Shown in pieces: positions 9,539-64,000 of a DNA stretch of 64,000 nt (positions are counted from its first letter, which is position 1; each line of letters starts with the position of its first letter). Under the pieces are notes generated by a model. It was not told the origin of the DNA and did no database searches. It saw only the letters and a list, made by a program, of their open reading frames with translations. This DNA comes from Escherichia phage FP43, in sequence record MN648445; one strand, 5' to 3'. The position numbers were made by a program, and so were the translations under genes.

Positions 9539-9540
9539 TT

Positions 9541-16250: not shown

Positions 16251-16253
16251 AGA

Positions 16254-16273: not shown

Positions 16274-16302
16274 TAGGGGGTCTATAACTTACTGAAAAAG
16301 TT

Positions 16303-16340: not shown

Positions 16341-16361
16341 CAACAACATGAGGAAAATGTT

Positions 16362-18036: not shown

Positions 18037-18059
18037 GAGGACTCCGGTCCTCCTTTTGG
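18037..18059 (+). terminator. Rho-independent terminator
   Basis: GGAGGAC-TCCG-GTCCTCC stem followed by TTTTGG. Confidence 0.7.
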
Positions 18060-18076
18060 ATAATAAAGGAGTTAAC

Positions 18077-19683: not shown

Positions 19684-19692
19684 GGAATCATT

Positions 19693-34487: not shown

Positions 34488-34515
34488 AGGGGGTCAAAAT
34501 ATTTTTAAAAAGTAG

Positions 34516-34552
34516 TGTACATGCTTTTAGGATATGTTATTATAGACCTATC
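34516..34552 (+). promoter_or_regulatory. Early-type promoter cassette
   Basis: TGTACA -35 variant, TATTAT -10, TAGACCTATC downstream. Confidence 0.5.
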
Positions 34553-34571
34553 AAAACAAGAGGAGAATAAA

Positions 34572-37651: not shown

Positions 37652-37677
37652 AAATTTTTCAACATGAGGAATATAAA

Positions 37678-38637
37678 ATGGCTTTTATTACACGTAGAGA
37701 ACTTATCAAAGAATTTACCTCGAACGCATATACTCCAGGACCTAATCCTATCCGTATGCCTGTAAAGACTCCTGAAGAGATTGAGGAAATCTGTTCATAT
37801 TATGGGATTACTTCTCGTATGTTTACCCAATTTGAATGCGTTACTAACACACCCGTTAAAGAGTTCATTAAAAATGGTGAGTTCAGCCGTTTATTGGCCA
37901 AACAGAAACTTCGTAATTTTTGTATTGGCGGTGAAGGTCAATATTTCGCTAAGCAGTTCCGGAATAACCTTAACAATCTGATGGCCATTGCTTCTCGTAT
38001 TCGTCCTCAAGCAATTAACATGAAACATTTGAAATATACTTACGATAAGTTAGAAATCATGGTTATCAGTGAGAACGAGTTCACTCTTACGTATAAACCT
38101 AAGAATGATAACGTTGCTCGTGTATTCCACCAAGCGTTGGAAGTTTTAGGTGATAATATCCACCAGATTAAAGCAATTTATTCTCGTGAGCTTAATATTA
38201 TCGACCCTATCAAGAATAAGGGCCATATCGCTATCCAGGCTCGTGTATCTATTAGTAAAAAGGTTCCTGCACCATGGTGGCACAAAGACTCTGAATATTA
38301 TCAAAATCTTAAAAAGGAAAATGCATTGTTTGAAGGCAATATTACAGCAACACCAGTCGGTAATGCAGAGGTTCTAGGCGCATATTCTCCAGCACAATCT
38401 GGTATGTTTAAAGGTTTGCCAAATGTGTGCAAACTGTCGACAGTAAAACTAAACGTTTCTAATGACCTTCTTCCTGCCGAAGACTACCATTATAATCAAA
38501 TCAAGGCCACTGTAGACCAACTATCCGTTGAACTTGATAAAGCACAAGCTAAGCTTCGTGATGCTCAACAGGTGGTGACCAATCTCCAGTTGCAGTACTC
38601 TAAACTTTTTAACGCAATGAATGCATTAAAATCATAA
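37678..38637 (+). CDS. Hypothetical protein with C-terminal coiled coil (member 2)
   Basis: 319-aa ORF. Confidence 0.5.
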   Translation: MAFITRRELIKEFTSNAYTPGPNPIRMPVKTPEEIEEICSYYGITSRMFTQFECVTNTPVKEFIKNGEFSRLLAKQKLRNFCIGGEGQYFAKQFRNNLNNLMAIASRIRPQAINMKHLKYTYDKLEIMVISENEFTLTYKPKNDNVARVFHQALEVLGDNIHQIKAIYSRELNIIDPIKNKGHIAIQARVSISKKVPAPWWHKDSEYYQNLKKENALFEGNITATPVGNAEVLGAYSPAQSGMFKGLPNVCKLSTVKLNVSNDLLPAEDYHYNQIKATVDQLSVELDKAQAKLRDAQQVVTNLQLQYSKLFNAMNALKS

Positions 38638-38642
38638 ATCAG

Positions 38643-38671
38643 TTTACAACCAAGGATGGTTGGAGTATAAT
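38643..38671 (+). promoter_or_regulatory. Early promoter cassette, duplicate of 37623
   Basis: GTTTAC 38643..38648, identical spacer hairpin, TATAAT 38666..38671. Confidence 0.6.
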
Positions 38672-39952: not shown

Positions 39953-40365
39953 TGAGATATAGCCTTCGTTGTTTTATTGCAGCTTTAGTTTTTGCCATTA
40001 TTCCATTCATTTGGAACAGCCAGAATACTTACATGGAAACTAAAGTAATTCCTGTGGAGGTAGTGGAATTAATCTCAGGCCAATCTACAGGAAAATATTC
40101 TAAATTAGAATTTATTGCAGTCTATAAAGACGAGCAAGGACGAGTTTTTGACAGACGTGTATCACCGTCGTTTTATACGCTTCTGAATAAAGGTGATACG
40201 ATAGCTATAGAAATTCGTGAGATGGATATCAAACAAACTACTAAAGATAACTTGATTTGGTTCTTTGGTACAGTGTTGTTGGTTTCTATCTGTATCACAG
40301 GTTTTATTACATGTATTGTATTTGGCATTGCATATTTAATCGATGAAAGGAAAAATAATGTTTAA
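39952..40365 (+). CDS. Membrane protein
   Basis: 137 aa with N- and C-terminal hydrophobic helices. Confidence 0.45.
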   Translation: MRYSLRCFIAALVFAIIPFIWNSQNTYMETKVIPVEVVELISGQSTGKYSKLEFIAVYKDEQGRVFDRRVSPSFYTLLNKGDTIAIEIREMDIKQTTKDNLIWFFGTVLLVSICITGFITCIVFGIAYLIDERKNNV

Positions 40366-40621
40366 AGTGTACGGGTATGACTCTACTATTCATAAATGCA
40401 TTTATTGTGATAATGCGAAACGATTGCTGACTGTTAAGAAACAGCCGTTCGAATTCATTAATGTTATGCCAGAAAAAGGTGTTTTTGATGATGAGAAAAT
40501 TGCTGAGCTTCTGGTTAAGCTTGGACGTGAATCACAAGTTGGATTGACTATGCCTCAAGTATTTGCTCCTGATGGAAGTCACATTGGTGGATTTGACCAA
40601 CTGCGAGAATATTTTAAATGA
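40358..40621 (+). CDS. nrdC: Glutaredoxin/thioredoxin NrdC
   Basis: 87 aa MFKVYGYDSTIHKCIYCDNAKRLL...; CxxC active site; recognised T4 NrdC pattern. Confidence 0.85.
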   Translation: MFKVYGYDSTIHKCIYCDNAKRLLTVKKQPFEFINVMPEKGVFDDEKIAELLVKLGRESQVGLTMPQVFAPDGSHIGGFDQLREYFK

Positions 40622-40914
40622 GTATTGATTTAACTTTCCCTGGCCCTTATGACCAGGGTGAATTAGAAGCTTTATTATATCAAGAAATGTGCTCTCGTGC
40701 CAAGAACGATATTCAGTATGCTATCGATAATCCATGGGGCGAATTTCGAGTAATGATGGGTAATCGAATCATCGGTGTCCAATGGCGATTCGTTGGCCTT
40801 GAGCCTGAGGACTATGAAGAAAACGAGCACGGTGACTGGATTCCTGTTGGTGAATATCACTGGGAATACGGTGGTCCTGATTTTGAAGTCTCTTGTTCAT
40901 GGGTAGAACAATAA
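40618..40914 (+). CDS. Hypothetical protein
   Basis: 98-aa ORF. Confidence 0.4.
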   Translation: MSIDLTFPGPYDQGELEALLYQEMCSRAKNDIQYAIDNPWGEFRVMMGNRIIGVQWRFVGLEPEDYEENEHGDWIPVGEYHWEYGGPDFEVSCSWVEQ

Positions 40915-40932
40915 CCTGCGAGAAAATTTTAA

Positions 40933-41289
40933 ATGACATATTCATTAAATCTTAAAGATTTCCAGGATGTATACGAAGTTTGTGCCAATGAACTTGGTCC
41001 TGATGCTCCAACTATTATTGAAGTTTTAAATGTGCTCCCTTCATCATTAGCTTACGAAGCCAAATCATGGGGTTGGAACGACACTGTAGTTCGTGATGAC
41101 CTTTACGTCCTGATGAACGATATGATGGTTAAAAAGGCAGAACCGGTTGCACCAATGGTTACCATTACCGTTGAAGAATATAATCGCCTGCAAGCCATTG
41201 AAGAGCTTCTGTGGAACATTGAATGTGACCTGCCGTCAGGGCTAGAATCCTGGATTGATTATGAAGAGCTCAATAAACTCCGGGGTTAA
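40933..41289 (+). CDS. Hypothetical protein
   Basis: 118-aa ORF. Confidence 0.4.
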   Translation: MTYSLNLKDFQDVYEVCANELGPDAPTIIEVLNVLPSSLAYEAKSWGWNDTVVRDDLYVLMNDMMVKKAEPVAPMVTITVEEYNRLQAIEELLWNIECDLPSGLESWIDYEELNKLRG

Positions 41290-47331: not shown

Positions 47332-47664
47332 ATGTCTACTAAAATCAAAAACGTAGTTAATTCTTTCGCTTTCGATAAAGTTGTTGCTCTTCTGGAATCC
47401 GGCAATATTGTTACTCCTCAAGTTCTTGACGCGTGGGAATTCCGTCTTTATGAAATCATGCAAAAACACGACCAGAAAATTGGACGTAATTCTATTCGTG
47501 AAATTCTAGTACAATATATTCTTTCTGAATTTGACGTTGCTGCATTTGGTGTTGAATCTAAAGCTTATCAGAAACATGAAATCTCTGAAAAGACTATCCG
47601 TCGTATGAAAAATCAACGTAAGAAAAAATTCGTTGACCTTAAAATTGTTAAGGCGGTAAAATGA
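47332..47664 (+). CDS. Hypothetical protein
   Basis: 110-aa ORF from ATG 47332. Confidence 0.45.
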   Translation: MSTKIKNVVNSFAFDKVVALLESGNIVTPQVLDAWEFRLYEIMQKHDQKIGRNSIREILVQYILSEFDVAAFGVESKAYQKHEISEKTIRRMKNQRKKKFVDLKIVKAVK

Positions 47665-47888
47665 GCGTATTAACAGAAACTTTGATTAATGACCTGCGTC
47701 TAGCTGGTTACGAAGTTGGTACAAATAGCCTAGGTCTTCCTCAGATTGAAGGTCCTGGATTTATTCTAGAATACGAATTCAAACAATGGTGGTTATATGC
47801 TACGGTTGACGATGCGTTGAATATTGATTTCGTTGACCAATTTGATTCGCTGGATGCTGCCTTATTTGCAGCAAAGGAACTAGAATGA
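47661..47888 (+). CDS. Hypothetical protein
   Basis: 75-aa ORF with ATGA overlap. Confidence 0.4.
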   Translation: MSVLTETLINDLRLAGYEVGTNSLGLPQIEGPGFILEYEFKQWWLYATVDDALNIDFVDQFDSLDAALFAAKELE

Positions 47889-48154
47889 AATTAACTCGAA
47901 TCAGTATAACTGAAGAAAAGCTGGGCGAATTTTACGTCGACAACTTTATGAAAGTTACGTATTTTCCATTTGTTAAAGGTGTCGGTTTTTGGGAACCTCA
48001 TGTATCTCAATTAAACGAAGGCGACTATAACGAAACACATGAGAACTTTTTAGATTTTCTTTATGGAGCTGGATTAACCGAGCTTTATATTGATATACAT
48101 GAGTTCAAACGTTTAATGGAAAAAGTATTCCAGGCGTATTGTTTGCTCCGATAG
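47885..48154 (+). CDS. Hypothetical protein
   Basis: 89-aa ORF with ATGA overlap. Confidence 0.4.
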   Translation: MKLTRISITEEKLGEFYVDNFMKVTYFPFVKGVGFWEPHVSQLNEGDYNETHENFLDFLYGAGLTELYIDIHEFKRLMEKVFQAYCLLR

Positions 48155-48161
48155 TATCTCG

Positions 48162-48206
48162 TGCTTTAAGATAGGTCTCTAAATATTATGATATAATAGA
48201 CCTATG
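48162..48206 (+). promoter_or_regulatory. Promoter region for gene 55 (MotA-box-like TGCTTTA plus TATTAT/TATAAT, with ATAGGTCT / AGACCTAT inverted repeat)
   Basis: TGCTTTA 48162..48168; A/T-rich -10 candidates 48184..48198. Confidence 0.45.
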
Positions 48207-48226
48207 AATTGAGCCAAGAGGTACTT

Positions 48227-48784
48227 ATGACTGAACAAAAACCTAAAAATAACTATGTGAATAATAAAGAGCTTCTCGCCGCTATAATCGAGTGGAAAAA
48301 GGAGCTCTTAAATAATAAAGACCCAAACAAAATTATTCGTCAGAATGATACCATCGGTTTAGCAATTATGCTTATCGCCGAAGGCCTGTCCAAACGTTTC
48401 AACTTTTCAGGATATACCCAGTCTTGGAAGCAGGAGATGATTGCAGATGGGATTGAAGCCTCTATTAAGGGACTTCATAATTTCGACGAAACTAAGTACA
48501 ATAACCCACATGCATACATAACTCGAGCTTGTTTTAATGCTTTTGTCCAACGTATCAAAAAAGAACGTAAGGAAGTTGCAAAGAAATATAGTTACTTCGT
48601 TCATAATGTCTACGACAGTCATGACGATGATATGGTAGCGTTGGTAGATGAAACGTTTATTCAAGACATCTACGATAAAATGACGCATTATGAAGAATCC
48701 GCTTATAAAGCTCCTGGGGCTGAAAAGAAGGAAGTTGTTAGCGATTCGCCTAGTTTGGATTTTTTATATGAGGATGACAATTGA
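48227..48784 (+). CDS. 55: Late-transcription sigma factor gp55
   Basis: 185 aa, [27 protein letters not shown]...; recognised T4 gp55 pattern. Confidence 0.88.
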
Positions 48785-48983
48785 CATCTCTAACTACTTA
48801 GAAGAACCTTTTGACGAAGCAATCCCTTATTTGGTAAAACTGTTGGGTCGTGAATTTAAAATTAATTTTGACATCGACCCTTTGAACCCACATGACGTGT
48901 CATTTTCGATAAATGGGACTCCAGTTGAGTACGAGTTCTGTATTGAAGAGGATGGACGTTTTTATTTTAATTTAATGAGATAA
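48768..48983 (+). CDS. Small hypothetical protein
   Basis: 71-aa ORF overlapping the end of gene 55. Confidence 0.35.
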
Positions 48984-48984
48984 T

Positions 48985-49308
48985 ATGACTACCGAGATTA
49001 TTGAAAATAAAGAAGCAGAAGATGCAGTAGCTAAAATGCTACAAGAAATCCAAAAGAAAAATGAAGCTGAAGCACGTAAAAAATCCGAAAAGATTCTTAA
49101 AAAGAATCGTTTTGAACTAAACCGTCTTTATGCACATGCTCAAGAAGCAGCAATTCAAAACAACTTCGAAGCTTACGAATATGCTATTAAGAAATCTCGG
49201 GATATTCTACGACAACCATATAATGACAAGTTAATTAAAATCCAGTGGATTACTACTCGTCAGGCTATTGAGGACATCATTAATGGCGCTAGTTCAAACA
49301 AAGTTTAA
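48985..49308 (+). CDS. Hypothetical protein
   Basis: 107-aa Lys/Glu-rich ORF. Confidence 0.4.
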   Translation: MTTEIIENKEAEDAVAKMLQEIQKKNEAEARKKSEKILKKNRFELNRLYAHAQEAAIQNNFEAYEYAIKKSRDILRQPYNDKLIKIQWITTRQAIEDIINGASSNKV

Positions 49309-49489
49309 ACGTCTGAAGCTGAACGCAGGGTTCTCCCTTAAATTGGGAGGTCCTCTTTGTGTTAAAATTTCTGAAAAGGAATATCACGACGGTTCTATTA
49401 CAGAAATTTGTCCGCCTATTGTAAAGGCAGACCCAAAACAACTCGTGTGGGTCGATTCATTTCAAGTTAAGAAATGGTGGAAACGATGA
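49283..49489 (+). CDS. Small hypothetical protein
   Basis: 68-aa ORF from ATG 49283. Confidence 0.35.
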   Translation: MALVQTKFKRLKLNAGFSLKLGGPLCVKISEKEYHDGSITEICPPIVKADPKQLVWVDSFQVKKWWKR

Positions 49490-49528
49490 GAGAAATTGAT
49501 TTAGGCATTTTCTGAGAGGTGCTTATGC

Positions 49529-49702
49529 ATGACGAACATCCCGACTTCTGAAAATTTCGATAAAATCCGTAAAGGCAAAGCAGAAAGAATGAGACGTTTT
49601 AAAGAGTCTTATGATAAAGCTAAAGCCGAAGGAACTATTACATACAAGCCCATTCGATTTAAAAGTTCAAATGAGCCTCTGTACGGTGTACTATGTGGAT
49701 AG
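49529..49702 (+). CDS. Small basic hypothetical protein
   Basis: 57-aa ORF (MTNIPTSENFDKIRKGK...) with GAGAGG RBS, ending at a strong terminator; below the ORF-track cutoff. Confidence 0.4.
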   Translation: MTNIPTSENFDKIRKGKAERMRRFKESYDKAKAEGTITYKPIRFKSSNEPLYGVLCG

Positions 49703-49727
49703 GAACTCTTCGGAGTTCCTTTTTTTG
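49702..49727 (+). terminator. Rho-independent terminator
   Basis: GGAACTC-TTCG-GAGTTCC followed by T7. Confidence 0.8.
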
Positions 49728-49772
49728 CTTTATAAACGGATGATAAAATGAATTAACTAATGAGGAAATAAT

Positions 49773-50792
49773 ATGAAAATTTTGCACTTAGGCGACTTCC
49801 ATATCGGAGTCAAACAAGACGACCCATGGGTTCAAGATATTCAACGTGATGGTATTCGACAAGCAATTGAATACTCTAAGAAACACGGGATTAAAACTTG
49901 GATTCAGTACGGTGATTGGTTTGACGTCCGTAAAGCAATAACACATCGTACAATGGAATTCAATCGTGAAATCGTTGATATGATTTCTAAAGCAGGCATT
50001 CACGTTCATGTCACGATAGGAAACCATGACATGGCGTTTAAGAATACAATAACACCTAACACTGTTTCTGAATTGTTAACTCAATTTGAAAACTTTACTA
50101 TTTACGAGCATCCAACTACTGTAGATTTTGACGGATGTCTGATTGATATCGTTCCATGGATGTGTGAAGAAAATACAGGTGAAATCTTAGAGCACATCAA
50201 GACTTCTTCTGCTGCGTATTGTGTTGGTCACTGGGAACTGAACGGTTTTTATTTCTATAAAGGAATGAAGTCCCATGGGCTTGAACCTGATTTCTTAAAG
50301 ACCTATAAACAAGTCTGGTCCGGCCACTTCCACACAATCTCTGAAGCTGCTAACGTCAAATATATTGGGACACCATGGACCCTTACTGCAGGTGACGAGA
50401 ACGACCCACGTGGATTCTGGGTATTCGACACTGATGTTGAACGTATGGAATTTATTCCTAATGAAACAACATGGCATCGACGAATCACTTATCCGTTTAA
50501 AGGCAAAATCAATTATTCTGATTATACTAATCTAGCCGTACGTGTTATAGTATCAGAAATTGATTCAGAGTTGACTAAATTTGAATCTGAACTTGAAAAA
50601 GTAGTTCACTCTCTTCGTATGGTTTCTAAAGTTGATAACAGTGTTGAATCTGATGACGACCAGGAAATCGAGATTAAATCACTTCAAGATATCATTAAAG
50701 AATATATTGACGCGATTCCAGATATCTCAGACGAAGACAGAGAAGCGCTGGTCAAATATTCCAACGAACTTTATATTGAGGCAACACAATGA
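49773..50792 (+). CDS. 47: Recombination endonuclease subunit gp47 (Mre11-like)
   Basis: 339 aa; phosphoesterase motifs GDFH and GNHD; T4 gp47 size. Confidence 0.88.
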   Translation: MKILHLGDFHIGVKQDDPWVQDIQRDGIRQAIEYSKKHGIKTWIQYGDWFDVRKAITHRTMEFNREIVDMISKAGIHVHVTIGNHDMAFKNTITPNTVSELLTQFENFTIYEHPTTVDFDGCLIDIVPWMCEENTGEILEHIKTSSAAYCVGHWELNGFYFYKGMKSHGLEPDFLKTYKQVWSGHFHTISEAANVKYIGTPWTLTAGDENDPRGFWVFDTDVERMEFIPNETTWHRRITYPFKGKINYSDYTNLAVRVIVSEIDSELTKFESELEKVVHSLRMVSKVDNSVESDDDQEIEIKSLQDIIKEYIDAIPDISDEDREALVKYSNELYIEATQ

Positions 50793-51046
50793 CTTTAGAT
50801 GAATTTAACAATGCTGGGCTAGGGCTTGAAGTTGAAATAGACGTTAAAGATGATGATGGATTCGAGAACACTATCAAGTATTGGATTGAGCCATTACGCG
50901 TTGAAGGCAATGAAGTTAAAGCCGTTCATGTCTGTACCGACTGGGCTATTGAATTTAGCTTTAATATAATGGACAACGATACTCCTAGCTCTATTCTTAA
51001 AATGGCTGAAGCGTGTATTGAGGATGCGTATAATGACGAAGACTGA
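50789..51046 (+). CDS. Hypothetical acidic protein
   Basis: 85-aa ORF between 47 and 46. Confidence 0.4.
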   Translation: MTLDEFNNAGLGLEVEIDVKDDDGFENTIKYWIEPLRVEGNEVKAVHVCTDWAIEFSFNIMDNDTPSSILKMAEACIEDAYNDED

Positions 51047-51272
51047 CTATGAAATCCATCGTCACGAATTTAGTATTGGCGACGGTTATATTGGTATCGT
51101 TGAATGGACTGAGAATTACGAGGAATCAACTCCTCGTTTCTTTGGAACAATGTATGTTATCTGTGAGTACGCACCAGGTGTTGTTATGTATGCAGAACTA
51201 GATGAATATTTTGCTGATAGGGATGACATGTTAAAATATGTAGAGGACTTCATTCGAAGAGAATACATATGA
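51033..51272 (+). CDS. Hypothetical protein
   Basis: 79-aa ORF from ATG 51033. Confidence 0.4.
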   Translation: MTKTDYEIHRHEFSIGDGYIGIVEWTENYEESTPRFFGTMYVICEYAPGVVMYAELDEYFADRDDMLKYVEDFIRREYI

Positions 51273-52957
51273 AATCATTTAAATTAAATCGTGTTCGTTA
51301 TCAAAACATCATGTCGGTAGGTGGGAATCCTATTGATATCCAATTAGATAAAGTCCAAAAGACATTAATCACTGGTAAAAATGGTGGTGGTAAATCTACG
51401 ATGTTAGAAGCCATTACTTTCGGACTTTTCGGTAAACCATTTCGTGATGTTAAGAAAGGACAAATCATTAATAGCACGAACAAGAAAGAGCTCTTAGTTG
51501 AGCTTTGGATGGAATTCGATGATAAAAAATACTTCATTAAACGAGGCCAAAAGCCCAATATTTTCGAAATCTCCGTTGACGGTGTTCGTCTTGATGAATC
51601 TGCCAGCAGTCGCGACTTCCAAGAAGAATTTGAACGTAGCATCGGAATGTCATACGCGTCTTTTAAACAGATCGTTGTGCTTGGGACGGCAGGGTATACC
51701 CCTTTCATGGCTCTTAGCACCCCTGCTCGTAGAAAACTTGTCGAAGACCTTTTAGAAGTAGGCACACTCGCTGAAATGGATAAAATCAATAAGTCTCAAG
51801 TTCGAGAACTTAATTCCCAGGGACAAGTTCTCGATGCTAAGAAAGATGGTGTTATCCAACAAATTAAGATTTATAACGAGAATATCGAACGTCAAAAGAA
51901 ATTATCTGGCGATAATGTAGCGCGTCTACAGAATATGTATGACGACCTGGCTAAAGAAGCTCGGTCATTAAAAGCAGAAATCGAAGAAGCTAATGAGCGA
52001 CTACTTAATATCGTTCTTGATGAAGACCCTACTGAGGCATTCAATAAGATAGGACAAGAAGCATTCTTGATTAAATCTAAAATTGACTCATATAACAAAG
52101 TTATTAAGATGTATCATGATGGCGGTACATGTCCTACTTGCGCATCACAGTTGCACCAGGGTGATCCTATTGTCTCTAAGATTACCGATAAGCTTCATGA
52201 ATGTAATCACTCATTCGAGCAACTTACCTGCCACAGAGATAATCTGAGTGTCCTAGTGGACGAATATAGAGCTAATGTTAAGACTAAGCAGGACCTTGCA
52301 TCTGATATTCGTACCAAGAAACAAGCAATGATTGCCACTATTGATAAAGCTAAGAAAGTTAAAGCTGCAATAGAGCAAGCCTCGGCAGAATTTATCGACC
52401 ATGCCGATGAGATAGCTTTGCTTCAAAAAGAACTTGATAAAATCATTAAAACAAAATCAGATATCGTTCTTGAAAAATACCATCGTGGTATTATCACAGA
52501 TATGTTAAAAGATTCTGGTATTAAAGGTGCTATCATTAAAAAATATGTGCCTCTGTTCAACAAGCAGATTAACCATTATCTTAAAATCATGGAAGCCGAT
52601 TACGTGTTTTCTATTGATGAAGAATTCAATGAATCTATAAAATCACGTGGTCGTGAAGAGTTCAGTTATGCTTCATTTAGTCAAGGTGAAAAAGCACGTA
52701 TCGATATTGCACTGTTGTTTACATGGCGAGATATTGCTGAAAAGGTCTCTGGTGTTAAAATCAACACGTTGATTCTTGATGAGGTTTTTGACGGCGCTGT
52801 AGATTCTGAAGCTGTTAAGGCTATAGATACCATTCTTGGAAGTTTACAAAATACTAACGTGTTCATTATCTCTCATCGAGACCATGACCCTCAACGTTAT
52901 GGACAACATCTTCAGATGAGTAAAGTTGGACGATTTACTGTAATGACTGTTTCATAA
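51269..52957 (+). CDS. 46: Recombination endonuclease subunit gp46 (Rad50-like ATPase)
   Basis: 562 aa; Walker A GKNGGGKST; central coiled coil; T4 gp46 size. Confidence 0.88.
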   Translation: MKSFKLNRVRYQNIMSVGGNPIDIQLDKVQKTLITGKNGGGKSTMLEAITFGLFGKPFRDVKKGQIINSTNKKELLVELWMEFDDKKYFIKRGQKPNIFEISVDGVRLDESASSRDFQEEFERSIGMSYASFKQIVVLGTAGYTPFMALSTPARRKLVEDLLEVGTLAEMDKINKSQVRELNSQGQVLDAKKDGVIQQIKIYNENIERQKKLSGDNVARLQNMYDDLAKEARSLKAEIEEANERLLNIVLDEDPTEAFNKIGQEAFLIKSKIDSYNKVIKMYHDGGTCPTCASQLHQGDPIVSKITDKLHECNHSFEQLTCHRDNLSVLVDEYRANVKTKQDLASDIRTKKQAMIATIDKAKKVKAAIEQASAEFIDHADEIALLQKELDKIIKTKSDIVLEKYHRGIITDMLKDSGIKGAIIKKYVPLFNKQINHYLKIMEADYVFSIDEEFNESIKSRGREEFSYASFSQGEKARIDIALLFTWRDIAEKVSGVKINTLILDEVFDGAVDSEAVKAIDTILGSLQNTNVFIISHRDHDPQRYGQHLQMSKVGRFTVMTVS

Positions 52958-56413: not shown

Positions 56414-59125
56414 ATGAAAGAATTTTACTTAACGGTTGAACAGATTGGTGATTCAATTTTTGAACGTTACATCGATTCTAATGGCCGTGAACGTACTCGT
56501 GAAGTAGAGTATAAGCCATCGTTGTTTGCACATTGTCCTGAAAGTCAGGCTACGAAATATTACGATATCTATGGTAAACCTTGTACTCGTAAATTATTCG
56601 CTAACATGCGTGATGCCTCCCAATGGATTAAACGCATGGAAGATATCGGACTTGAAGCACTTGGCATGGACGATTTCAAATTGGCGTATTTGTCTGACAC
56701 TTATAACTATGAAATCAAATACGACCATACAAAAATTCGTGTGGCTAACTTCGACATCGAAGTAACATCTCCGGACGGGTTCCCTGAGCCGTCACAAGCA
56801 AAACATCCGATTGATGCTATCACCCATTATGACTCAATTGATGACAGGTTTTATGTATTTGACCTTTTGAATTCTCCATACGGTAATGTAGAAGAATGGT
56901 CTATCGAAATTGCGGCTAAGCTTCAAGAACAAGGTGGTGATGAAGTTCCATCCGAAATTATCGATAAAATCATTTATATGCCGTTCGATAACGAAAAAGA
57001 ATTGTTAATGGAATATCTCAACTTCTGGCAACAGAAAACTCCTGTCATTTTGACTGGATGGAACGTTGAGTCATTTGATATTCCATATGTGTATAACAGA
57101 ATCAAGAATATTTTTGGTGAATCTACTGCGAAACGTTTATCACCACATCGTAAAACTCGTGTTAAAGTTATCGAAAACATGTATGGTTCTCGTGAAATCA
57201 TTACATTGTTCGGTATCTCTGTTCTTGATTACATTGACCTTTACAAAAAATTCTCTTTTACCAATCAACCGTCGTATTCTCTGGATTACATTTCAGAATT
57301 TGAATTGAACGTTGGTAAACTGAAATATGACGGCCCTATTTCTAAGCTTCGTGAAAGCAATCACCAACGATATATTTCTTATAACATCATCGACGTGTAT
57401 CGTGTATTGCAAATTGATGCTAAGCGCCAGTTCATCAACTTGAGTTTGGACATGGGTTATTATGCTAAGATACAGATTCAATCTGTGTTCAGCCCAATTA
57501 AAACATGGGATGCTATTATTTTTAATAGCCTTAAAGAGCAGAACAAGGTGATTCCACAAGGTCGTTCTCACCCGGTTCAACCTTATCCCGGTGCTTTTGT
57601 TAAGGAACCTATTCCAAATCGATACAAATATGTAATGAGTTTCGACCTTACATCTCTGTATCCAAGTATTATTCGCCAAGTGAATATTAGCCCAGAAACA
57701 ATAGCAGGAACGTTTAAAGTAGCTCCACTGCATGATTATATTAACGCAATCGCTGAACGTCCTTCAGATGTGTACAGTTGTTCTCCTAACGGCATGATGT
57801 ATTATAAAGACCGTGATGGTGTAGTTCCAACTGAAATCACTAAGGTCTTTAATCAACGTAAAGAACATAAAGGTTACATGCTTGCGGCTCAACGTAATGG
57901 TGAAATAATTAAAGAGGCGTTGCATAATCCTAATCTTTCTGTTGACGAACCATTAGATGTTGATTATCGTTTCGACTTCAGCGATGAGATTAAAGAAAAG
58001 ATTAAAAAGTTGTCTGCTAAATCTCTTAATGAAATGTTGTTTAGAGCTCAACGTACTGAAGTTGCAGGTATGACTGCACAAATTAACCGTAAATTGCTCA
58101 TCAACTCGCTTTATGGTGCACTTGGAAACGTTTGGTTCCGTTATTACGATTTGCGTAATGCTACTGCAATCACAACATTTGGTCAAATGGCTTTACAGTG
58201 GATTGAACGTAAAGTTAATGAATACCTGAATGAAGTTTGTGGTACAGAAGGCGAAGCTTTCGTTCTTTATGGTGATACAGACTCTATTTACGTATCTGCT
58301 GATAAAATTATCGATAAGGTTGGTGAATCTAAATTCCGTGATACCAACCATTGGGTAGACTTCTTAGATAAGTTTGCTCGTGAACGTATGGAACCGGCTA
58401 TTGATAGAGGTTTCCGTGAAATGTGTGAATACATGAATAATAAGCAACATTTGATGTTCATGGACCGAGAAGCTATTGCTGGTCCTCCGCTCGGTTCTAA
58501 AGGTATTGGTGGATTCTGGACTGGTAAGAAACGTTATGCATTAAACGTGTGGGATATGGAAGGAACTAGATACGCTGAGCCTAAACTCAAAATCATGGGT
58601 CTAGAGACTCAGAAATCTTCGACCCCTAAAGCAGTACAGAAAGCTCTTAAAGAATGTATTCGTCGTATGCTTCAAGAAGGTGAAGAATCATTACAAGAAT
58701 ATTTTAAAGAGTTTGAAAAAGAATTCCGTCAATTGAATTATATTAGCATCGCGTCAGTATCTTCTGCGAATAACATTGCTAAATACGACGTTGGTGGATT
58801 CCCTGGTCCTAAATGCCCGTTCCATATTCGTGGAATTCTGACATATAACAGAGCTATCAAAGGTAATATTGATGCTCCACAAGTTGTAGAAGGCGAAAAG
58901 GTATACGTTCTGCCTTTACGTGATGGAAACCCGTTCGGTGATAAATGTATCGCATGGCCTTCTGGTACTGAAATCACAGATTTAATTAAAGACGACGTAC
59001 TTCATTGGATGGACTACACTGTTCTCCTTGAGAAGACATTTATTAAACCACTTGAAGGATTCACATCAGCAGCGAAACTCGATTACGAGAAGAAAGCATC
59101 TCTGTTCGATATGTTCGATTTTTGA
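56414..59125 (+). CDS. 43: DNA polymerase gp43 (family B)
   Basis: 903 aa; exo motif FDIEV, polymerase motif YGDTDS; N-terminus MKEFYLTVEQIGDSIFERYIDSNGRERT... matches RB69 gp43 as recalled. Confidence 0.93.
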   Translation: MKEFYLTVEQIGDSIFERYIDSNGRERTREVEYKPSLFAHCPESQATKYYDIYGKPCTRKLFANMRDASQWIKRMEDIGLEALGMDDFKLAYLSDTYNYEIKYDHTKIRVANFDIEVTSPDGFPEPSQAKHPIDAITHYDSIDDRFYVFDLLNSPYGNVEEWSIEIAAKLQEQGGDEVPSEIIDKIIYMPFDNEKELLMEYLNFWQQKTPVILTGWNVESFDIPYVYNRIKNIFGESTAKRLSPHRKTRVKVIENMYGSREIITLFGISVLDYIDLYKKFSFTNQPSYSLDYISEFELNVGKLKYDGPISKLRESNHQRYISYNIIDVYRVLQIDAKRQFINLSLDMGYYAKIQIQSVFSPIKTWDAIIFNSLKEQNKVIPQGRSHPVQPYPGAFVKEPIPNRYKYVMSFDLTSLYPSIIRQVNISPETIAGTFKVAPLHDYINAIAERPSDVYSCSPNGMMYYKDRDGVVPTEITKVFNQRKEHKGYMLAAQRNGEIIKEALHNPNLSVDEPLDVDYRFDFSDEIKEKIKKLSAKSLNEMLFRAQRTEVAGMTAQINRKLLINSLYGALGNVWFRYYDLRNATAITTFGQMALQWIERKVNEYLNEVCGTEGEAFVLYGDTDSIYVSADKIIDKVGESKFRDTNHWVDFLDKFARERMEPAIDRGFREMCEYMNNKQHLMFMDREAIAGPPLGSKGIGGFWTGKKRYALNVWDMEGTRYAEPKLKIMGLETQKSSTPKAVQKALKECIRRMLQEGEESLQEYFKEFEKEFRQLNYISIASVSSANNIAKYDVGGFPGPKCPFHIRGILTYNRAIKGNIDAPQVVEGEKVYVLPLRDGNPFGDKCIAWPSGTEITDLIKDDVLHWMDYTVLLEKTFIKPLEGFTSAAKLDYEKKASLFDMFDF

Positions 59126-59165: not shown

Positions 59166-59801
59166 ATGAAAACTACACCAATCACTATCGCTATTGACGC
59201 AATCGTAAAACAAGCTTCATCTCTTGCCACTATGGCTAAAGTAATTAGTCAAAACTCTGCCCGATATAATGCTATTCTTGAAACTCTTCGTCGCCCTGGA
59301 CTGAGTAATTATGAAAGCCGAGTAATTATTACAGGTGTTGGTAAGAACGCTAATATCGCAACTAAAGCTTCCGAGACTTTTGCTTCACTAGGTATTCCTA
59401 GCATGTATTTGAACACCGGGCATTATTCTCATGGCGACGCAGGATTTATTGCACCTAATGATGTATTAGTTCACATCAGTCGTTCTGGTAAGACTGAAGA
59501 AATGATAGGTGTTGCTAAACATCTTCGTATGATTCGTCCTCAGGTTAAACAGATTCTGTTACATTGTAACCCTGACATTCCGCAAGAATACGAAGCTCTT
59601 TTTGATTATACGTTCTGTACAGGCATCGCGGTAGAGGTTGATGAGAATTCTCTGGCTCCGACCATGTCCACTACATTGTTGTTAGCGCTTATCGATACGT
59701 TTGCTATCAACCTTTCGTCTGAACGTGGATTTACCTCTAATGACTTCCTTAAGTTCCACCCTGGTGGTGCACTAGGTGCCATGTTACGAGGCGAACAATG
59801 A
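59166..59801 (+). CDS. SIS-domain sugar-phosphate isomerase (GmhA/KdsD-like)
   Basis: 211 aa; GVGKNANIATKASETF and C-terminal HPGGALG typical of SIS isomerases. Confidence 0.65.
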   Translation: MKTTPITIAIDAIVKQASSLATMAKVISQNSARYNAILETLRRPGLSNYESRVIITGVGKNANIATKASETFASLGIPSMYLNTGHYSHGDAGFIAPNDVLVHISRSGKTEEMIGVAKHLRMIRPQVKQILLHCNPDIPQEYEALFDYTFCTGIAVEVDENSLAPTMSTTLLLALIDTFAINLSSERGFTSNDFLKFHPGGALGAMLRGEQ

Positions 59802-59941
59802 AAGCAATAACAATAGGACTTTTACTATTGATGCTTGTCATGACTATCTACTGGAGCTTAACGGCTCCAGTAATGATTCCGACTCTTATAATCGGATGGA
59901 TTATGATTGGACTACAAGCAAAGTATGAATGCTTTAACTAG
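59798..59941 (+). CDS. 47-aa two-helix membrane peptide
   Basis: MKAITIGLLLLMLVMTIYWSLTAPVMIPTLIIGWIMIGL...; ATGA overlap with isomerase stop; below ORF-track cutoff. Confidence 0.35.
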   Translation: MKAITIGLLLLMLVMTIYWSLTAPVMIPTLIIGWIMIGLQAKYECFN

Positions 59942-59982: not shown

Positions 59983-61668
59983 ATGAAAAAAGCTGTTATT
60001 CTTGGTGCTGGACTGGCAACTCGTTTGTATCCAATAACGCACCATATTCCTAAGGTGCTTGTTAACTATAAACAAGACACTATTCTGAGCAATTTGTATA
60101 CAATTTATTCTGACCTTGGCGCAGATGAAATTATTGTAGTAGTTCATTCAAAATTTGCTGAAACTGTTCGAGCTTATTGCGAGCAAGAAGGGTTCAATGT
60201 GACTATTCGTACAGTTGATGAAGCGTATGGTTCTGCTTATGCTCTTGCTAAATTATACAAAGATTTAGATGGCCATAACGTAATTGTTAACTGGTGTGAT
60301 ATTATTCCTGACTTTGGTTCATGGTCTTGGAATGTTAACGCAATCTATGTTAAGGGTGATGAATGTCGATATAATTTCGATGGTGAAAATATCACTAACG
60401 TAGGTTCAACAGGTGGTAATGTTGTAGGAATTTATCAGTTCAAAGACTGGGAATTCTACATGGGTTCTACTGATGAGGAAATTCACGAATACTGCAAAGG
60501 TCGTGATTTCGTAGAATTCCTTTACGGCAGTGCATTCAATAAATCAGAGCTTATGAATCTAATTGATTTAGGTGATATGCCTAAACTTGAAAAGGCTCAT
60601 GAAGTTCGTGAACTGAATCGTAGTTTTAATGCAGTTGAAATTGGCGAAGAAACTGTAACTAAATTCGCGTTAACCGAACAAGGTCGAGCTCTTCAAAAAG
60701 ATGAGATTTCATGGTATTTGAAAGTGAAATCAGATTCAGTTCCTCAGTTAGTTTCGGTAAATGAAAATAATTTTGAAATGGAACGTATTAAAGGTAAGCC
60801 GGCATTTGAATATATTAAATCCAAATCAAGTCTTGCTCGTCCACAAATTGTTGATGCAATTTTAGATGCACTGAAATTCAGCACGGACACTTATTTTGTA
60901 AGTCCTGAAACTGTTCGCCGTGATTTCACTAAAGAGTTCTATACGAAAGTTATTGATCGTTGTGAAAGCATTCAGCCATTGATTGATTCATTTGGTAAAA
61001 TCACACATGTGAACTACACTAAGATTGGACGTCTGAAGCCAATGTTGAAACAAGCTTTAGAACATCTTATTCGTTATCATAACCGTTCTCAGGGACAGTA
61101 CTCTGTTATTCATGGTGACCCGAACTTCAGTAATACTATGATTACCGATAACGGCGAAGTCAAGTTTATCGACCCTCGTGGATATTTTGGTGAAACCAAG
61201 ATTTACGGGCCAAAATTGTATGATGAAGCTAAAGTGCTTTATGCTGTTTCAGGTTATGATGAATTCAATGCTAATCCGACCTGGGGTCAGTTTACTATTG
61301 ATGAAACAACTTGTAATGTGACTATTAACATCAATCCATTAGTTTACAAATATGGAAAGATGAGTTCGTTTAACGAGTATCATCATTTGGCAGTAGCAAT
61401 TATCTGGATTGCATTAGGTGGTTATTTCAAGAATAATCCACTTAAAGCGGTTGCCGCATATTATAAAGGTATGGAACTTCTGACTAAGCAATTACGTAAC
61501 ATGGGCCGTGTACTTCAAGACGGCTCTATTAGTTATGACGTAGCAGAACCTGTAACGGCTACTCTGATTACAAAAAATCCTGGTAAATGGGTACTAACTG
61601 ATAAAGAAACTGGTGTTTCCTATCGTCCAATCGGCGGCGATATCACTCATCAATGGGAACGAATCTAA
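59983..61668 (+). CDS. Bifunctional sugar-1-phosphate nucleotidyltransferase / sugar kinase
   Basis: 561 aa; N-terminal MKKAVILGAGLATRLYP (RmlA/GlmU-like); C-terminal HGDPNFSN ... IDPRG (APH/choline-kinase-like). Confidence 0.65.
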   Translation: MKKAVILGAGLATRLYPITHHIPKVLVNYKQDTILSNLYTIYSDLGADEIIVVVHSKFAETVRAYCEQEGFNVTIRTVDEAYGSAYALAKLYKDLDGHNVIVNWCDIIPDFGSWSWNVNAIYVKGDECRYNFDGENITNVGSTGGNVVGIYQFKDWEFYMGSTDEEIHEYCKGRDFVEFLYGSAFNKSELMNLIDLGDMPKLEKAHEVRELNRSFNAVEIGEETVTKFALTEQGRALQKDEISWYLKVKSDSVPQLVSVNENNFEMERIKGKPAFEYIKSKSSLARPQIVDAILDALKFSTDTYFVSPETVRRDFTKEFYTKVIDRCESIQPLIDSFGKITHVNYTKIGRLKPMLKQALEHLIRYHNRSQGQYSVIHGDPNFSNTMITDNGEVKFIDPRGYFGETKIYGPKLYDEAKVLYAVSGYDEFNANPTWGQFTIDETTCNVTININPLVYKYGKMSSFNEYHHLAVAIIWIALGGYFKNNPLKAVAAYYKGMELLTKQLRNMGRVLQDGSISYDVAEPVTATLITKNPGKWVLTDKETGVSYRPIGGDITHQWERI

Positions 61669-62054
61669 TGCACCGTGTAGAAAACATGCTTAATCTTTGT
61701 TTTGATGTCGATGATTGTATAACAGAGTGGAATAACAATCGTGATTACGTGAACTTCAAACCAGACGTCGAAATGGTGTCTGCCATTAATGCCCTGTATG
61801 ATGCAGGGCATACCATAACGCTTTACACTGCCCGTGGTATGAAGTCGGTAGGTCCTGGTCGTATAGCAATTGACATTCTCCCAAGTCTGATTCAGAACTT
61901 GGAAAACATTGGTTTGAAGTACCATAATTTGCTAACACATAAACCAGTATATGATTGGATTATCGACGACAAAGCTATGCGTCCTGACGAATTCAAAGCT
62001 CTTATGAATAAAGGCGAATTCGAAACATTTAAATCATATAAACCAAATCTATAA
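61668..62054 (+). CDS. HAD-superfamily phosphatase (small, KdsC/GmhB-like)
   Basis: 128 aa; motif I FDVDDCIT, motif II ITLYTAR, Lys in HKP, motif IV IIDD. Confidence 0.6.
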   Translation: MHRVENMLNLCFDVDDCITEWNNNRDYVNFKPDVEMVSAINALYDAGHTITLYTARGMKSVGPGRIAIDILPSLIQNLENIGLKYHNLLTHKPVYDWIIDDKAMRPDEFKALMNKGEFETFKSYKPNL

Positions 62055-62100: not shown

Positions 62101-63273
62101 ATGCAAAAAAAAATGAATACTTTTAAAATCGGAACGAATTTTGATTTAGCTCTTCTTGATAAAATCGTAGAGCTCAATAAAACCTATCCTAATAGCTTGA
62201 TAAACGAAGTATATGGCTCTACAAGAGAAATGGCTTTTGTAGCAGCCAGACCTGATTTTAGGCTTCCTGACGTTGACAAAAAGATGTTAGAAGATTACGT
62301 TAAACGTTGTAACGAATTAGGTATTTGCTTTAACTATACACTCAACACGATAAATCCTGGTTCAAAAAGAGAACTAGTTGAGTGGAAGAAGAAAGCTATT
62401 CAGGATTATGTTCAGTATCTTTGGTCAATAGGCGTATGGCGTATTACTATCGCTAACCCTGTTGTTATGGAAATTGTTCGTGAAGTCAATAAAGATATTG
62501 AGATTGAAGTTTCAACAATTCTACATGTTGATGCTGTAACTCAAATCAAATACTTGCATGACCAATATAACATCAAAAAGGTCTGTTGCGGAATTCATAA
62601 GAACCGTTCAGTTTCTTTCCTGAAGCGTGCAGCAGAGTTTTGCAATAAGAACAATATAATATTTGAAGTTCTTGTAAATGAGTTCTGTTCTAATGCTGGT
62701 AAAGGGTATACAACACATTGTAGCTATCGTGACTCTTGCTATATTTTCCATAGTACTGATGTTACCGCTGATGATGCTAAATCCTTAAATGGATATCCTA
62801 TGCAGCACTGTATTAAAGCTCGTGATACAGACCCATTTAACTGGTTGAGAACTCGTTTTGTTCGTCCTCAAGATTTGAAACTTTATAATGATATTGGTAT
62901 CACTCAATTTAAAGTTTCAGGACGTACAGGTAGCACAGACTACATTTTGAAAGTTCTTGAAGCATACGCTTCTGAAAAGTTTGAAGGTAATTTGTTAGAA
63001 CTGTGGAAGCCTTTAGAGACTATTTTCACTCTTGAAAATGAGACTGAGTTTTCACATACAGTAAATATTGAAACCTCTTTGTTAGATGGCTTTTTAGAAA
63101 AAAGGTGGTTCAGACATCCAGATTTTGATTGTGCTAATGAAATCTGTGGGTCAACGTGTACATATTGTGAAAGGTATTATAAACGTCAATTATCTAAAAA
63201 CGGGTTAGCAGAAAACTCCATATCTATTATTGATATAACTAACTCTGATGACGCTTTGAGGTACCCGGAATGA
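62101..63273 (+). CDS. U32-family protein (peptidase U32 / prephenate-dependent hydroxylase fold)
   Basis: 390 aa; blocks align by eye to U32 proteins: IANPVVMEIVRE, IIFEVLVNEFC, KVSGRTGSTDY (cf. KIEGRTKSFYY), plus C-terminal Cys cluster. Confidence 0.6.
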   Translation: MQKKMNTFKIGTNFDLALLDKIVELNKTYPNSLINEVYGSTREMAFVAARPDFRLPDVDKKMLEDYVKRCNELGICFNYTLNTINPGSKRELVEWKKKAIQDYVQYLWSIGVWRITIANPVVMEIVREVNKDIEIEVSTILHVDAVTQIKYLHDQYNIKKVCCGIHKNRSVSFLKRAAEFCNKNNIIFEVLVNEFCSNAGKGYTTHCSYRDSCYIFHSTDVTADDAKSLNGYPMQHCIKARDTDPFNWLRTRFVRPQDLKLYNDIGITQFKVSGRTGSTDYILKVLEAYASEKFEGNLLELWKPLETIFTLENETEFSHTVNIETSLLDGFLEKRWFRHPDFDCANEICGSTCTYCERYYKRQLSKNGLAENSISIIDITNSDDALRYPE

Positions 63274-63509
63274 TTTCTAGAAAAAGTTTTAATTATAAAC
63301 TTAACGAAGAGATTTTGACTATGAAACTGAACACTAACGAACAAATTCTTAAAAAGGCCCTTATGGGCCTGTTTGAAACCAAAGCGGCTAAAGTGATTAA
63401 AGAACCTGTTCAATTGGAATACTACACTGATGCATTCCTTCATAGTGTTCTTGGAAGTATAGATTCTGAAGCTTTACGTTATATCAACATTGTCAAGAAA
63501 TTCAAATAA
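63270..63509 (+). CDS. Hypothetical protein
   Basis: 79-aa ORF with ATGA overlap. Confidence 0.4.
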   Translation: MISRKSFNYKLNEEILTMKLNTNEQILKKALMGLFETKAAKVIKEPVQLEYYTDAFLHSVLGSIDSEALRYINIVKKFK

Positions 63510-63532: not shown

Positions 63533-63568
63533 AAATTGTATTGAGGTAAACATGGAAAATATAACACA

Positions 63569-64000
63569 ATGAAATATATCAAAGCCGCAGATTTTCAAGC
63601 CGCATTTAAAGCAGTCAATCGTGAAATTTTAGAAAACCCCGAATTCGTAACTGATTCTCGTATTGGACGTTGTAATGAAATCGGGTCCATGACAGTAGTT
63701 GTTGACAATCCATCATCATTCAAAATGACCGACCCACGTATTAACCGCATCTCTTATGAATATGCCGAAGACTTCTGGAAGTTTATGATTTCTGGTGGTA
63801 CTGATGCAGAAGAAGCGTTTAAGGCATATCCTAATGTCGCTAAATTCATTTCTAAACCAAAATCAGATGCTTTGCCTGCGAACTTCAACACTTTCTACGG
63901 TCCTCGCATTGTGGCCCAATTACCAGCTCTTCTAAAAGAACTTAAAGAGAAACCTAACTCTCGAAGAGTTGTGTTCCAAATTCTAGAAAGTTCTGATCAG
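63569..64000 (+). CDS. 42: Thymidylate-synthase-family pyrimidine hydroxymethylase (gene 42 position), N-terminal part; 3' end beyond window
   Basis: TS-like blocks AEDFWKFMISGG and KPNSRRVV (cf. PDSRR); position next to gene 43 as for T4 gene 42; N-terminus diverges from T4 gp42 as recalled. Confidence 0.55.
   Translation, partial: MKYIKAADFQAAFKAVNREILENPEFVTDSRIGRCNEIGSMTVVVDNPSSFKMTDPRINRISYEYAEDFWKFMISGGTDAEEAFKAYPNVAKFISKPKSDALPANFNTFYGPRIVAQLPALLKELKEKPNSRRVVFQILESSDQ

Follow-up and report, generated by a model that had tools for sequence, protein, structure and literature searches.

The 64,000-nucleotide (nt) stretch of Escherichia phage FP43 analyzed here (record MN648445; hereafter the window, with positions given for the whole stretch and on the + strand unless stated) derives, in our reading, from a Mosigvirus phage that has an empty site between genes 55 and 47, where T4 carries its alpha-glucosyltransferase gene (a-gt), and whose DNA would bear arabinosylated 5-hydroxycytosine instead of glucosylated 5-hydroxymethylcytosine (hmC). 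We estimate the probability of this reading at about 0.9. Observed directly in the DNA are the genes present and their orthology, the lack of a-gt and of the beta-glucosyltransferase gene (b-gt), and the sequence of the module at the junction with gene 47. That RB69-type phages are missing the glucosyltransferases and modify their DNA with arabinose has been known from publications since 2018; the identity of the base was revised in 2025-2026. Because arabinose on 5-hydroxycytosine is already known in these phages, the finding is correct but ordinary.

Sequence comparison assigns the window to the genus Mosigvirus, as DNA of a T-even phage akin to RB69. The 4 kb stretch 47500-51500, within which the 55-47 interval falls, is 98-99% identical to phage p000v, the LF82 phages, ATK47 and other Mosigvirus genomes, and in 146 public records a single match spans at least 80% of it; overall, the DNA identity to p000v and other Mosigvirus genomes is 97-99%. 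The interval between genes 55 and 47 is 97.98% identical to positions 39991-40979 of RB69, and gp55, the products of a-gt.5 to a-gt.2, gp47 and gp43 share 95-100% protein identity with their RB69 counterparts. The RB69 GenBank record (NC_004928) already labels the four open reading frames (ORFs) of this interval a-gt.2 to a-gt.5 and shows no a-gt. RB69 resembles the window in the gene order 55, a-gt.5, a-gt.4, a-gt.3, a-gt.2, 47, in the junction module and in the cassette after gene 43 (the gp45 to gp55 cluster); it differs in that its kinase/nucleotidyltransferase gene is split in the GenBank record by a known sequencing error, whereas the window has one intact ORF of 561 amino acids (aa).

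The upstream boundary of the interval is gene 55 (48227..48784, +), encoding a late sigma factor of 185 aa that is 99.5% identical to RB69 gp55 and whose p000v counterpart is annotated as RNA polymerase sigma factor. The downstream boundary is gene 47 (49773..50792, +), encoding an SbcD-like nuclease subunit of 339 aa that is 100% identical to RB69 gp47. Between them, 48785..49772 comprises 988 bp, 89% of it coding, with four + strand ORFs of 71, 107, 68 and 57 aa and then a predicted hairpin terminator; minus-strand ORFs of 31-50 aa are present without support. An earlier note on this DNA, made from the letters alone, had described an interval of about 1 kb with four ORFs of 57-107 aa and a strong terminator, and in this it was right. 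It had also stated that T4 has an a-gt of about 400 aa between genes 47 and 55. The T4 interval measures 3152 bp and indeed encodes an enzyme of 400 aa, together with genes that the note had left unmentioned, the order being a-gt.5, a-gt.4, a-gt.3, a-gt.2, mobB, a-gt and 47.1. Compared with T4, the window is missing only mobB (an HNH homing endonuclease gene), a-gt and 47.1, about 2.2 kb together.

The four ORFs are conserved genes, chance ORFs being excluded. They are, as judged by similarity, orthologues of a-gt.5 to a-gt.2, which T4 also carries, and no replacement for a-gt. The first (48768..48983, +; 71 aa, DUF5491) matches T4 a-gt.5 by tblastn with E = 1e-14 and 47% identity, RB69 a-gt.5 with 100% identity, Pfam DUF5491 with E = 6e-13 (49 bits) and phrog_1169 with E = 1e-24; its first 17 nt lie within the end of gene 55, an overlap that T4 also has. 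The second (48985..49308, +; 107 aa, DUF2654) is the a-gt.4 orthologue (tblastn E = 4e-32, 58% identity; 99% to RB69 a-gt.4; Pfam DUF2654 E = 2e-27), and the third (49283..49489, +; 68 aa) is that of a-gt.3 (tblastn E = 6e-29, 69% identity; 98.5% to RB69 a-gt.3; phrog_1648 E = 1e-33). The a-gt.2 orthologue (49529..49702, +; 57 aa, DUF5486) is the closest to T4, with 76% identity (tblastn E = 3e-24; 95% to RB69 a-gt.2; Pfam DUF5486 E = 5e-28). The three Pfam families were built on these very T4 genes, and the matches to them are above the curated thresholds, the scores for DUF5486, DUF2654 and DUF5491 being 97, 96 and 49 bits for cut-offs of 25-27; the gene order is that of T4 and RB69. The PHROG families of the four ORFs (E = 1e-24 to 6e-37) are classed as function unknown. 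Since a-gt.2 to a-gt.5 are kept in phages that have no a-gt, these genes are not tied to glucosylation.

The statement of the earlier note that no glucosyltransferase gene stands at this position was borne out by tblastn with T4 a-gt and b-gt, which found nothing in the interval, the best a-gt score being 22 bits, inside the a-gt.5 ORF. The same queries gave nothing significant in the 64-kb window (best E = 0.016 for a-gt and 1.9 for b-gt). The check that the note had proposed was extended to the complete genome of p000v, the closest annotated relative (167,803 bp, assembled with verified overlaps), where the best E values were 0.042 and 4.4, that is, no homologue of either gene; a T4 mobB query does find a homing endonuclease in p000v, elsewhere in the genome. 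There is no homologue of about 400 aa between genes 55 and 47, and none of b-gt, of about 350 aa, downstream of gene 42. At that second position p000v has gp166, for which BLASTP showed no similarity to b-gt. Nor did Pfam reveal a hidden glycosyltransferase when ten further large ORFs of the window were scanned.

At the junction with gene 47, an intrinsic-terminator-like hairpin, AGGAACTC-UUCG-GAGTTCCT followed by T7, was located by terminator scan and RNA folding at 49701..49727 (+; stem-loop 49701..49720). As RNA, AGGAACTC-UUCG-GAGUUCCU has a stem of 8 bp with seven U after it and starts inside the stop codon of the a-gt.2 orthologue; at -13.2 kcal/mol (z = -3.9) it is more stable than the folds of all 200 shuffled sequences. 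A CTTCGG hairpin occupies the same junction in RB69, T4 and Klebsiella phage ATCCa, and phage Bp7 has CTTAGG there (alignment A1). A T4 middle promoter consists of a MotA box and then a -10 element. A site of this type, with MotA box TTTTGCTTTA, 11 nt and the -10 element TAAAAT, was found by a regular-expression match at 49723..49749 (+), upstream of gene 47, in agreement with the consensus as published (PMC4122927). Taken as a whole, the junction matches the consensus pattern of a G+C-rich hairpin, a T-run, (a/t)3TGCTT(t/c)A, 11-13 nt and TAnnnT. We infer that the predicted terminator and promoter are functional: the hairpin would end transcripts coming from the gene 55 region, and the MotA-type middle promoter would restart transcription into genes 47 and 46.

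This module of hairpin, MotA box and -10 element is present twice in T4, after a-gt.2 and after a-gt (16590-16640 and 18690-18735 of the T4 locus), and it stands on both flanks of a-gt in the Jiaodavirus ATCCa (about 2160-2230 and 3430-3500 of its locus). In the window, RB69 and Bp7 it is single-copy (alignment A1). As the module lies on both sides of a-gt in T4 and ATCCa and occurs once here, a-gt looks like a cassette and the window locus like its empty site; the gene would have entered or left between repeated terminator-promoter modules. Promoter-stem-loop modules known as PeSL/PmSL, including the middle-promoter type, mediate modular shuffling in T4-like phages (PMC2839356, PMC4122927). 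The likeness to these cassettes (Arbiol 2010, PMC2839356; Comeau 2014, PMC4122927) lies in the coupling of a terminator stem-loop to a promoter, which in the window is a middle promoter with a Mot box, and in a module that edges a gene block present in some genomes and absent in others. The difference is that the text of PMC4122927 contains neither the a-gt locus nor RB69, and recombination at the module of the window would be an extension of that model. The T4 locus shares with the window the flanking genes and the four orthologous a-gt.x genes (47-76% identity), as well as the UUCG hairpin and MotA box after a-gt.2; it differs in having mobB, a-gt, 47.1 and two modules instead of one, and in the chemistry of its DNA modification. 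We think that the one-copy site, set against the two-copy T4 locus, illustrates cleanly how a cassette with a DNA-modification gene can be gained or lost.

The site was surveyed across T4-like phages by tblastn with gp47 and inspection of representative genomes. Among the genera surveyed, a-gt is found between 55 and 47 only in Tequatrovirus and in Jiaodavirus, whose Klebsiella phage has 55, four small ORFs, a-gt and 47. The site has no a-gt in the Dhakavirus Bp7 (55, a-gt.5, a-gt.4, a-gt.3, an unannotated a-gt.2-like end, 47) or in the Krischvirus FL20 (55, two small ORFs, 47), and the gene annotated beside 47 is 55 in cyanophage, Stenotrophomonas, Salmonella, Klebsiella and Vibrio phage records (tblastn rows H134-H151). 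The absence of a-gt from the window is, on this comparison, the common state among T4-like genera and no peculiarity. The a-gt.2-like coding end of Bp7 (…EPLYGVLVG) lies at about 3300-3440 of its locus, before the hairpin, in a 300-bp stretch that has no annotated gene.

The alternative that survives best is that the short interval is a secondary deletion, the Mosigvirus ancestor having had a-gt and lost it after gaining arabinosylation; a-gt would then be no insertion specific to the T4 and Jiaodavirus lineages. The sharing of a-gt.5 to a-gt.2 and of the junction module with T4 agrees with such a loss, and recombination between two flanking modules would remove a-gt cleanly and leave one module, as is seen; even so, we consider it unlikely, as the site has no a-gt in Dhakavirus and Krischvirus either, and 55 is the gene annotated beside 47 in the other phage records just named. 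The absence of a-gt is the more widespread state across genera and therefore probably the older one, and the distribution favors the gain of an a-gt cassette in the T4 lineage over its loss in Mosigvirus. Remnants of a-gt, b-gt, mobB or 47.1 sought as pseudogenes in the interval at E up to 1000 gave only the 22-bit match inside the a-gt.5 ORF, and no remnant of a-gt is detectable. What can be cited for the deletion is AAAATGAATTA, 11 nt at 49745-49755 after the -10 element, which equals the start of T4 mobB and here opens a two-codon ORF, ATG AAT TAA. It was not counted as the footprint of a lost homing endonuclease, being too short and too A+T-rich, and the match could be due to chance.

The sugar cassette to which the earlier note pointed lies downstream of gene 43 (56414..59125). 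The first gene of the cassette (59166..59801, +) encodes a predicted arabinose-5-phosphate isomerase, orthologous to RB69 gp55 (96% identical to RB69p055), with a Pfam SIS match and NCBIfam matches to KpsF/GutQ (E = 9e-32) and KdsD (E = 3e-30); the isomerase role of RB69 gp55 has been proposed (PMC13326640). After a small ORF orthologous to RB69 gp54 (59828..59941; within the 96-100% identity range of the cassette proteins) comes the gene of a bifunctional sugar kinase/nucleotidyltransferase of 561 aa (59983..61668, +), the orthologue of RB69 gp52:53 (99.7-100% to RB69p052/p053). This protein has a Pfam NTP_transferase domain in its N-terminal part and weak kinase matches in its C-terminal part, is analogous to AfhE, and its RB69 counterpart has a described role in the pathway (PMC13326640, PMC6024577). 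Next, a HAD-type sugar phosphatase orthologous to RB69 gp51 (61668..62054, +; 98% to RB69p051) matches an NCBIfam capsule biosynthesis phosphatase with E = 2e-13 and is analogous to AfhF; the phosphatase role is that given for RB69 gp51 (PMC13326640). The cassette continues with a peptidase-U32-family protein orthologous to RB69 gp50 (62101..63273, +; 99% to RB69p050; start at 62101, 62104 or 62113) and with the orthologue of RB69 gp49 (63270..63509; 89% identity). The window then ends within the gene of a thymidylate-synthase-family 5-hydroxy-dCMP (deoxycytidine monophosphate) synthase, the orthologue of RB69 gp48. Its N-terminal 150 aa are encoded at 63551..64000 (+), where 149 aligned residues are 97% identical to residues 2-150 of RB69p048, and the full-length homologue from p000v matches Thymidylat_synt with E = 2e-15. 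The window therefore contains the RB69-type genes for UDP-arabinose (uridine diphosphate arabinose), namely isomerase, kinase/nucleotidyltransferase and HAD phosphatase, and the N-terminal part of the 5-hydroxy-dCMP synthase.

Beyond gp48, both p000v and RB69 have an arabinosyltransferase (gp46:47), a nucleotide kinase (gp45) and then uvsX. The gp46:47-type arabinosyltransferase of these two phages sits directly downstream of the gene-42 homologue, at the b-gt position of T4. In p000v this gene-42 homologue is the gp48 orthologue, and it shares no more than 25% identity with T4 gp42. A second arabinosyltransferase (gp3) stands beside rIIA in p000v and RB69, and the p000v homologues of RB69p046/047 and p003 are 97-100% identical to them. 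Neither homologue gave a Pfam or NCBIfam match, and BLASTP against T4 a-gt and b-gt found nothing; with no family match, their assignment rests on published fold comparisons. Two side observations concern this region. According to its annotation, RB69 gp54 resembles the intercistronic region 42-imm of T4. Whereas T4 has imm and imm.1 between genes 43 and 42, their place in Mosigvirus is between dmd and sp (131097-131775 in p000v, 19011-19689 in RB69), and the site after gene 43 is occupied by the arabinose cassette.

The chemistry and the enzyme roles are carried over from the literature on RB69, NP and HY126. Thomas et al. reported in 2018 that RB69 DNA contains arabinose and no glucose, noted that homologues of the glucosyltransferases are missing, and put forward ORF003c and the ORF53_52c region as genes of the pathway (PMC6024577). 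Using mass spectrometry (MS) and nuclear magnetic resonance (NMR), Lee et al. (2026) established that the cytosines of RB69 are beta-D-Araf-(1-3)-alpha-D-Araf-5-hydroxy-dC (Araf, arabinofuranose; dC, deoxycytidine), with arabinose on all cytosines of the virion DNA. They showed experimentally that the thymidylate-synthase homologue gp48 makes 5-hydroxy-dCMP using O2, and likewise found RB69 to have no a-gt or b-gt homologues (PMC13326640). The Mosigvirus phage NP, described in a paper on the Durham collection, has mono- and di-arabinosyl-dC and the same gene layout (PMC13390438). The pathways of HY126 (Afh genes), DLP3, LC53, Bas46 and Bas47 have the same set of 5-hydroxy-dCMP and UDP-arabinose enzymes. 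The Acinetobacter phage DLP3 differs in having three transferases, a tri-arabinosyl cytosine and a cluster that has no U32 gene, whereas the transferases of Mosigvirus number two, and one of these is encoded at a distance from the cluster. For Bas46, Bas47, LC53 and HY126, the sources cited are Mahler et al. (2025) and He et al. (2026).

By analogy with RB69, the FP43 isolate would presumably make the same modification. The gp48 homologue would convert dCMP into 5-hydroxy-dCMP, which would then be phosphorylated and incorporated by the phage polymerase. For the sugar, the isomerase would turn ribulose-5-phosphate into arabinose-5-phosphate, the kinase domain would form arabinose-1,5-bisphosphate from it, the phosphatase would release arabinose-1-phosphate, and the nucleotidyltransferase domain would yield UDP-arabinofuranose. 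Finally, two arabinosyltransferases, encoded outside the window, would add one or two arabinoses to the 5-hydroxyl in DNA. The earlier note had taken the sugar cassette at 59-63 kb, together with the short 55-47 interval, as a hint that the DNA sugar differs from T4 glucose. The difference in sugar is supported by the 96-100% identity to the RB69 orthologues together with the arabinose chemistry published for RB69 and NP, and the enzymes found at that place are those for UDP-arabinose; the hint fell short in that the base would differ as well, being 5-hydroxycytosine and not hmC. The DNA of this phage should resist many type II restriction enzymes and behave unlike T4 DNA towards type IV restriction and CRISPR.

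Several points weigh against arabinosylation in FP43 and the empty site as we present them. The window covers 64 kb of about 168 kb, leaving room for a glucosyltransferase gene elsewhere in the isolate, and both arabinosyltransferase genes lie outside it. It is also a mosaic, identical to no record searched and with several indel sites relative to p000v, and its promoter and terminator are predicted, being assigned from consensus matches only. Lastly, a tblastn match to T4 a-gt does exist at 18077-18679, at a chance-level E of 0.016 over 69 aa; the E = 0.042 match in p000v falls in the same ORF. The ORF in question (18056-18679, also called 18077-18679; 200-207 aa) was rejected as an a-gt homologue, the match having 19/69 identities and a 9-residue gap. 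It belongs to phrog_2607, an unrelated family of unknown function, has no Pfam match and no glycosyltransferase signal, and in a search against the PDB gave only flavodoxin noise (E = 0.5).

The first and the third of these points are what would speak for an a-gt relocated outside the window, with the DNA still glucosylated. We regard this as very improbable, given that the complete p000v genome has no a-gt or b-gt homologue, that published analyses find none in RB69, and that the arabinose and 5-hydroxy-dCMP cassette is intact. Moreover, T4 a-gt matched 657 phage records by tblastn, and the 60 sampled were Tequatrovirus-type phages, Klebsiella/Raoultella phages and Erwinia phage Cronus, as against the 146 genomes that match stretch 47500-51500. 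Weakest of all is the idea that the DNA carries no sugar (plain cytosine, hmC or 5-hydroxycytosine) and that the 59-63 kb cassette serves, for example, host envelope sugar metabolism: it could draw on the window having no transferase gene and on the isomerase and nucleotidyltransferase families also acting in capsule and lipopolysaccharide synthesis, but it is hardly credible when proteins 96-100% identical occur in RB69, whose DNA carries arabinose on all cytosines by MS and NMR, likewise in NP, and when the relatives have both arabinosyltransferase genes.

Within the arabinosylation pathway, the peptidase-U32-family gene (62101-63273) calls for separate comment, the product of its RB69 orthologue, gp50, being listed by Lee et al. 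(2026) only as a "sugar or heterocycle reductase" (PMC13326640). We put forward the tentative idea, which we think has the odds against it, that the gp50 orthologue is a prephenate- and Fe-S-dependent, O2-independent cytosine-C5 hydroxylase, fed by a phage 3-deoxy-D-arabino-heptulosonate 7-phosphate (DAHP) synthase. Such a route may stand beside the O2-dependent thymidylate-synthase-type enzyme in the same way as TrhP beside TrhO, or UbiU/UbiV beside UbiI/H/F. Among the U32 proteins (PMC5727448, PMC6599085, PMC6747719), RlhA forms 5-hydroxycytidine in 23S rRNA and is prephenate- and Fe-S-dependent, TrhP forms 5-hydroxyuridine in tRNA with prephenate and no need of O2, and UbiU and UbiV are O2-independent hydroxylases with [4Fe-4S] clusters. 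The two other known pathways of pyrimidine hydroxylation use no homologue of the gp48 synthase (Lee et al. 2026, PMC13326640). The idea may already have been addressed in He et al. 2026 (Nat Chem Biol) or Mahler et al. 2025.

The gp50 orthologue matches Pfam Peptidase_U32 with E = 7e-11, and hhalign of its profile against UbiU, UbiV, RlhA and TrhP gives a probability of 96% and E = 4e-9. Essential residues of the family are a Glu and the two Cys of a CX6C motif, namely E161, C169 and C176 in RlhA and E162, C170 and C177 in TrhP (PMC6599085, PMC6747719). In the gp50 orthologue, E189 aligns with the invariant essential Glu of the Escherichia coli U32 proteins, and C207, C213 and C237 align, profile to profile, with the UbiU ligands C169, C176 and C232; a MAFFT alignment with the E. 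coli proteins had misplaced the CX5C motif, which the profile-profile alignment put in place. The protein thus has the U32 domain, the essential Glu and two Cys, and across 25 homologues E189, C207, C213 and C237 show full or at least 90% conservation. The profile of these 25, which extends down to 46% identity, shows ten invariant cysteines. Compared with the canonical CX6CX15CX3/4C, the spacing in gp50 is CX5C, and the third Cys falls in a stretch that gp50 lacks; the invariant C196 or a C-terminal CX4CX3CX2C motif may take its place. A sequence search against the PDB gave no match for the gp50 orthologue, and its AF2 model (pLDDT 88) has the U32 structure 5D88 as best PDB structure match.

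The gene occurs in 221 public phage records, always with at least 80% identity, and is far more conserved than the neighboring kinase/nucleotidyltransferase gene, with 42-73% between the same genera. Acinetobacter hosts are strict aerobes. This genus is missing among the hosts of U32-bearing phages, although the kinase/nucleotidyltransferase gene is found in 57 records of Acinetobacter phages; judged by identity bands, the U32 gene is also missing from Dhakavirus-type coliphages. Homologues at 50-58% identity occur in phage-like metagenomic contigs (L017, L018, L020, L022, L023, L024), where the neighbors include dCMP deaminase, thymidylate-kinase-like kinases, uracil-DNA glycosylase, DnaE polymerase, dUTPase/dCTP deaminase, a TAGT-like DNA glycosyltransferase, a weakly QTMAN-like glycosyltransferase, UDP-galactopyranose mutase and radical-SAM genes. 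No thymidylate-synthase homologue was found within 7-8 kb of the U32 gene in any of the six contexts. A neighbor of 248 aa in L020 was considered as such a homologue and rejected by BLASTP, and the neighbors of 248-265 aa in L017, L018 and L020 have no Pfam match.

The pathway that leads to prephenate begins with DAHP synthase. In p000v, a DAHP synthase gene adjoins that of dCMP deaminase and scores as an aroFGH equivalog (428 bits for a cut-off of 173); p000v 15828-16820 (L004) is listed as a locus alongside the U32 gene of the window. Homologues of the phage synthase are present in 212 phage records, and their numbers by host genus follow those of the U32 gene: Escherichia 124/136, Klebsiella 25/26, Proteus 7/7, Serratia 6/7, Enterobacter 4/4 and Edwardsiella 3/3. 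In an unrelated metagenomic phage contig, a DAHP synthase of another class lies immediately downstream of the U32 gene. The U32 residues, the gene contexts and this co-distribution therefore suggest an O2-independent, prephenate-dependent route to 5-hydroxycytosine. Its weak points are a co-distribution uncorrected for shared ancestry, some Yersinia phages that seem to have the U32 gene and no DAHP synthase, four Acinetobacter records that have the synthase, contexts that hold sugar genes (an epimerase), and the non-canonical cysteine motif. If the proposal is true, the gp50 route would account for gut phages maintaining the modification of their DNA in the absence of O2.

Some further features of the window were recorded in the comparison with p000v. 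Indels are found at 9515-9541, 14798-14884 and 37655-38645, and two homing-endonuclease genes of p000v, one between genes 4 and 2 and the other following the tRNA genes, are missing from the window. At 14730-14884 it has adjacent tRNA-Met(CAT) and tRNA-Arg(TCT) genes, where the p000v annotation has tRNA-Met only. An extra DUF7235 gene of 319 aa is present at 37678-38637, between two other genes of about 320 aa. The gene at 34515-35552 encodes a protein of 345 aa with weak matches to P-loop/STAND-like NTPases and a C-terminal helix-turn-helix, and the gene that precedes it (33182-34171) encodes a nucleotidyltransferase of 329 aa of the RlaP type, which belongs to an RNA-repair pathway.

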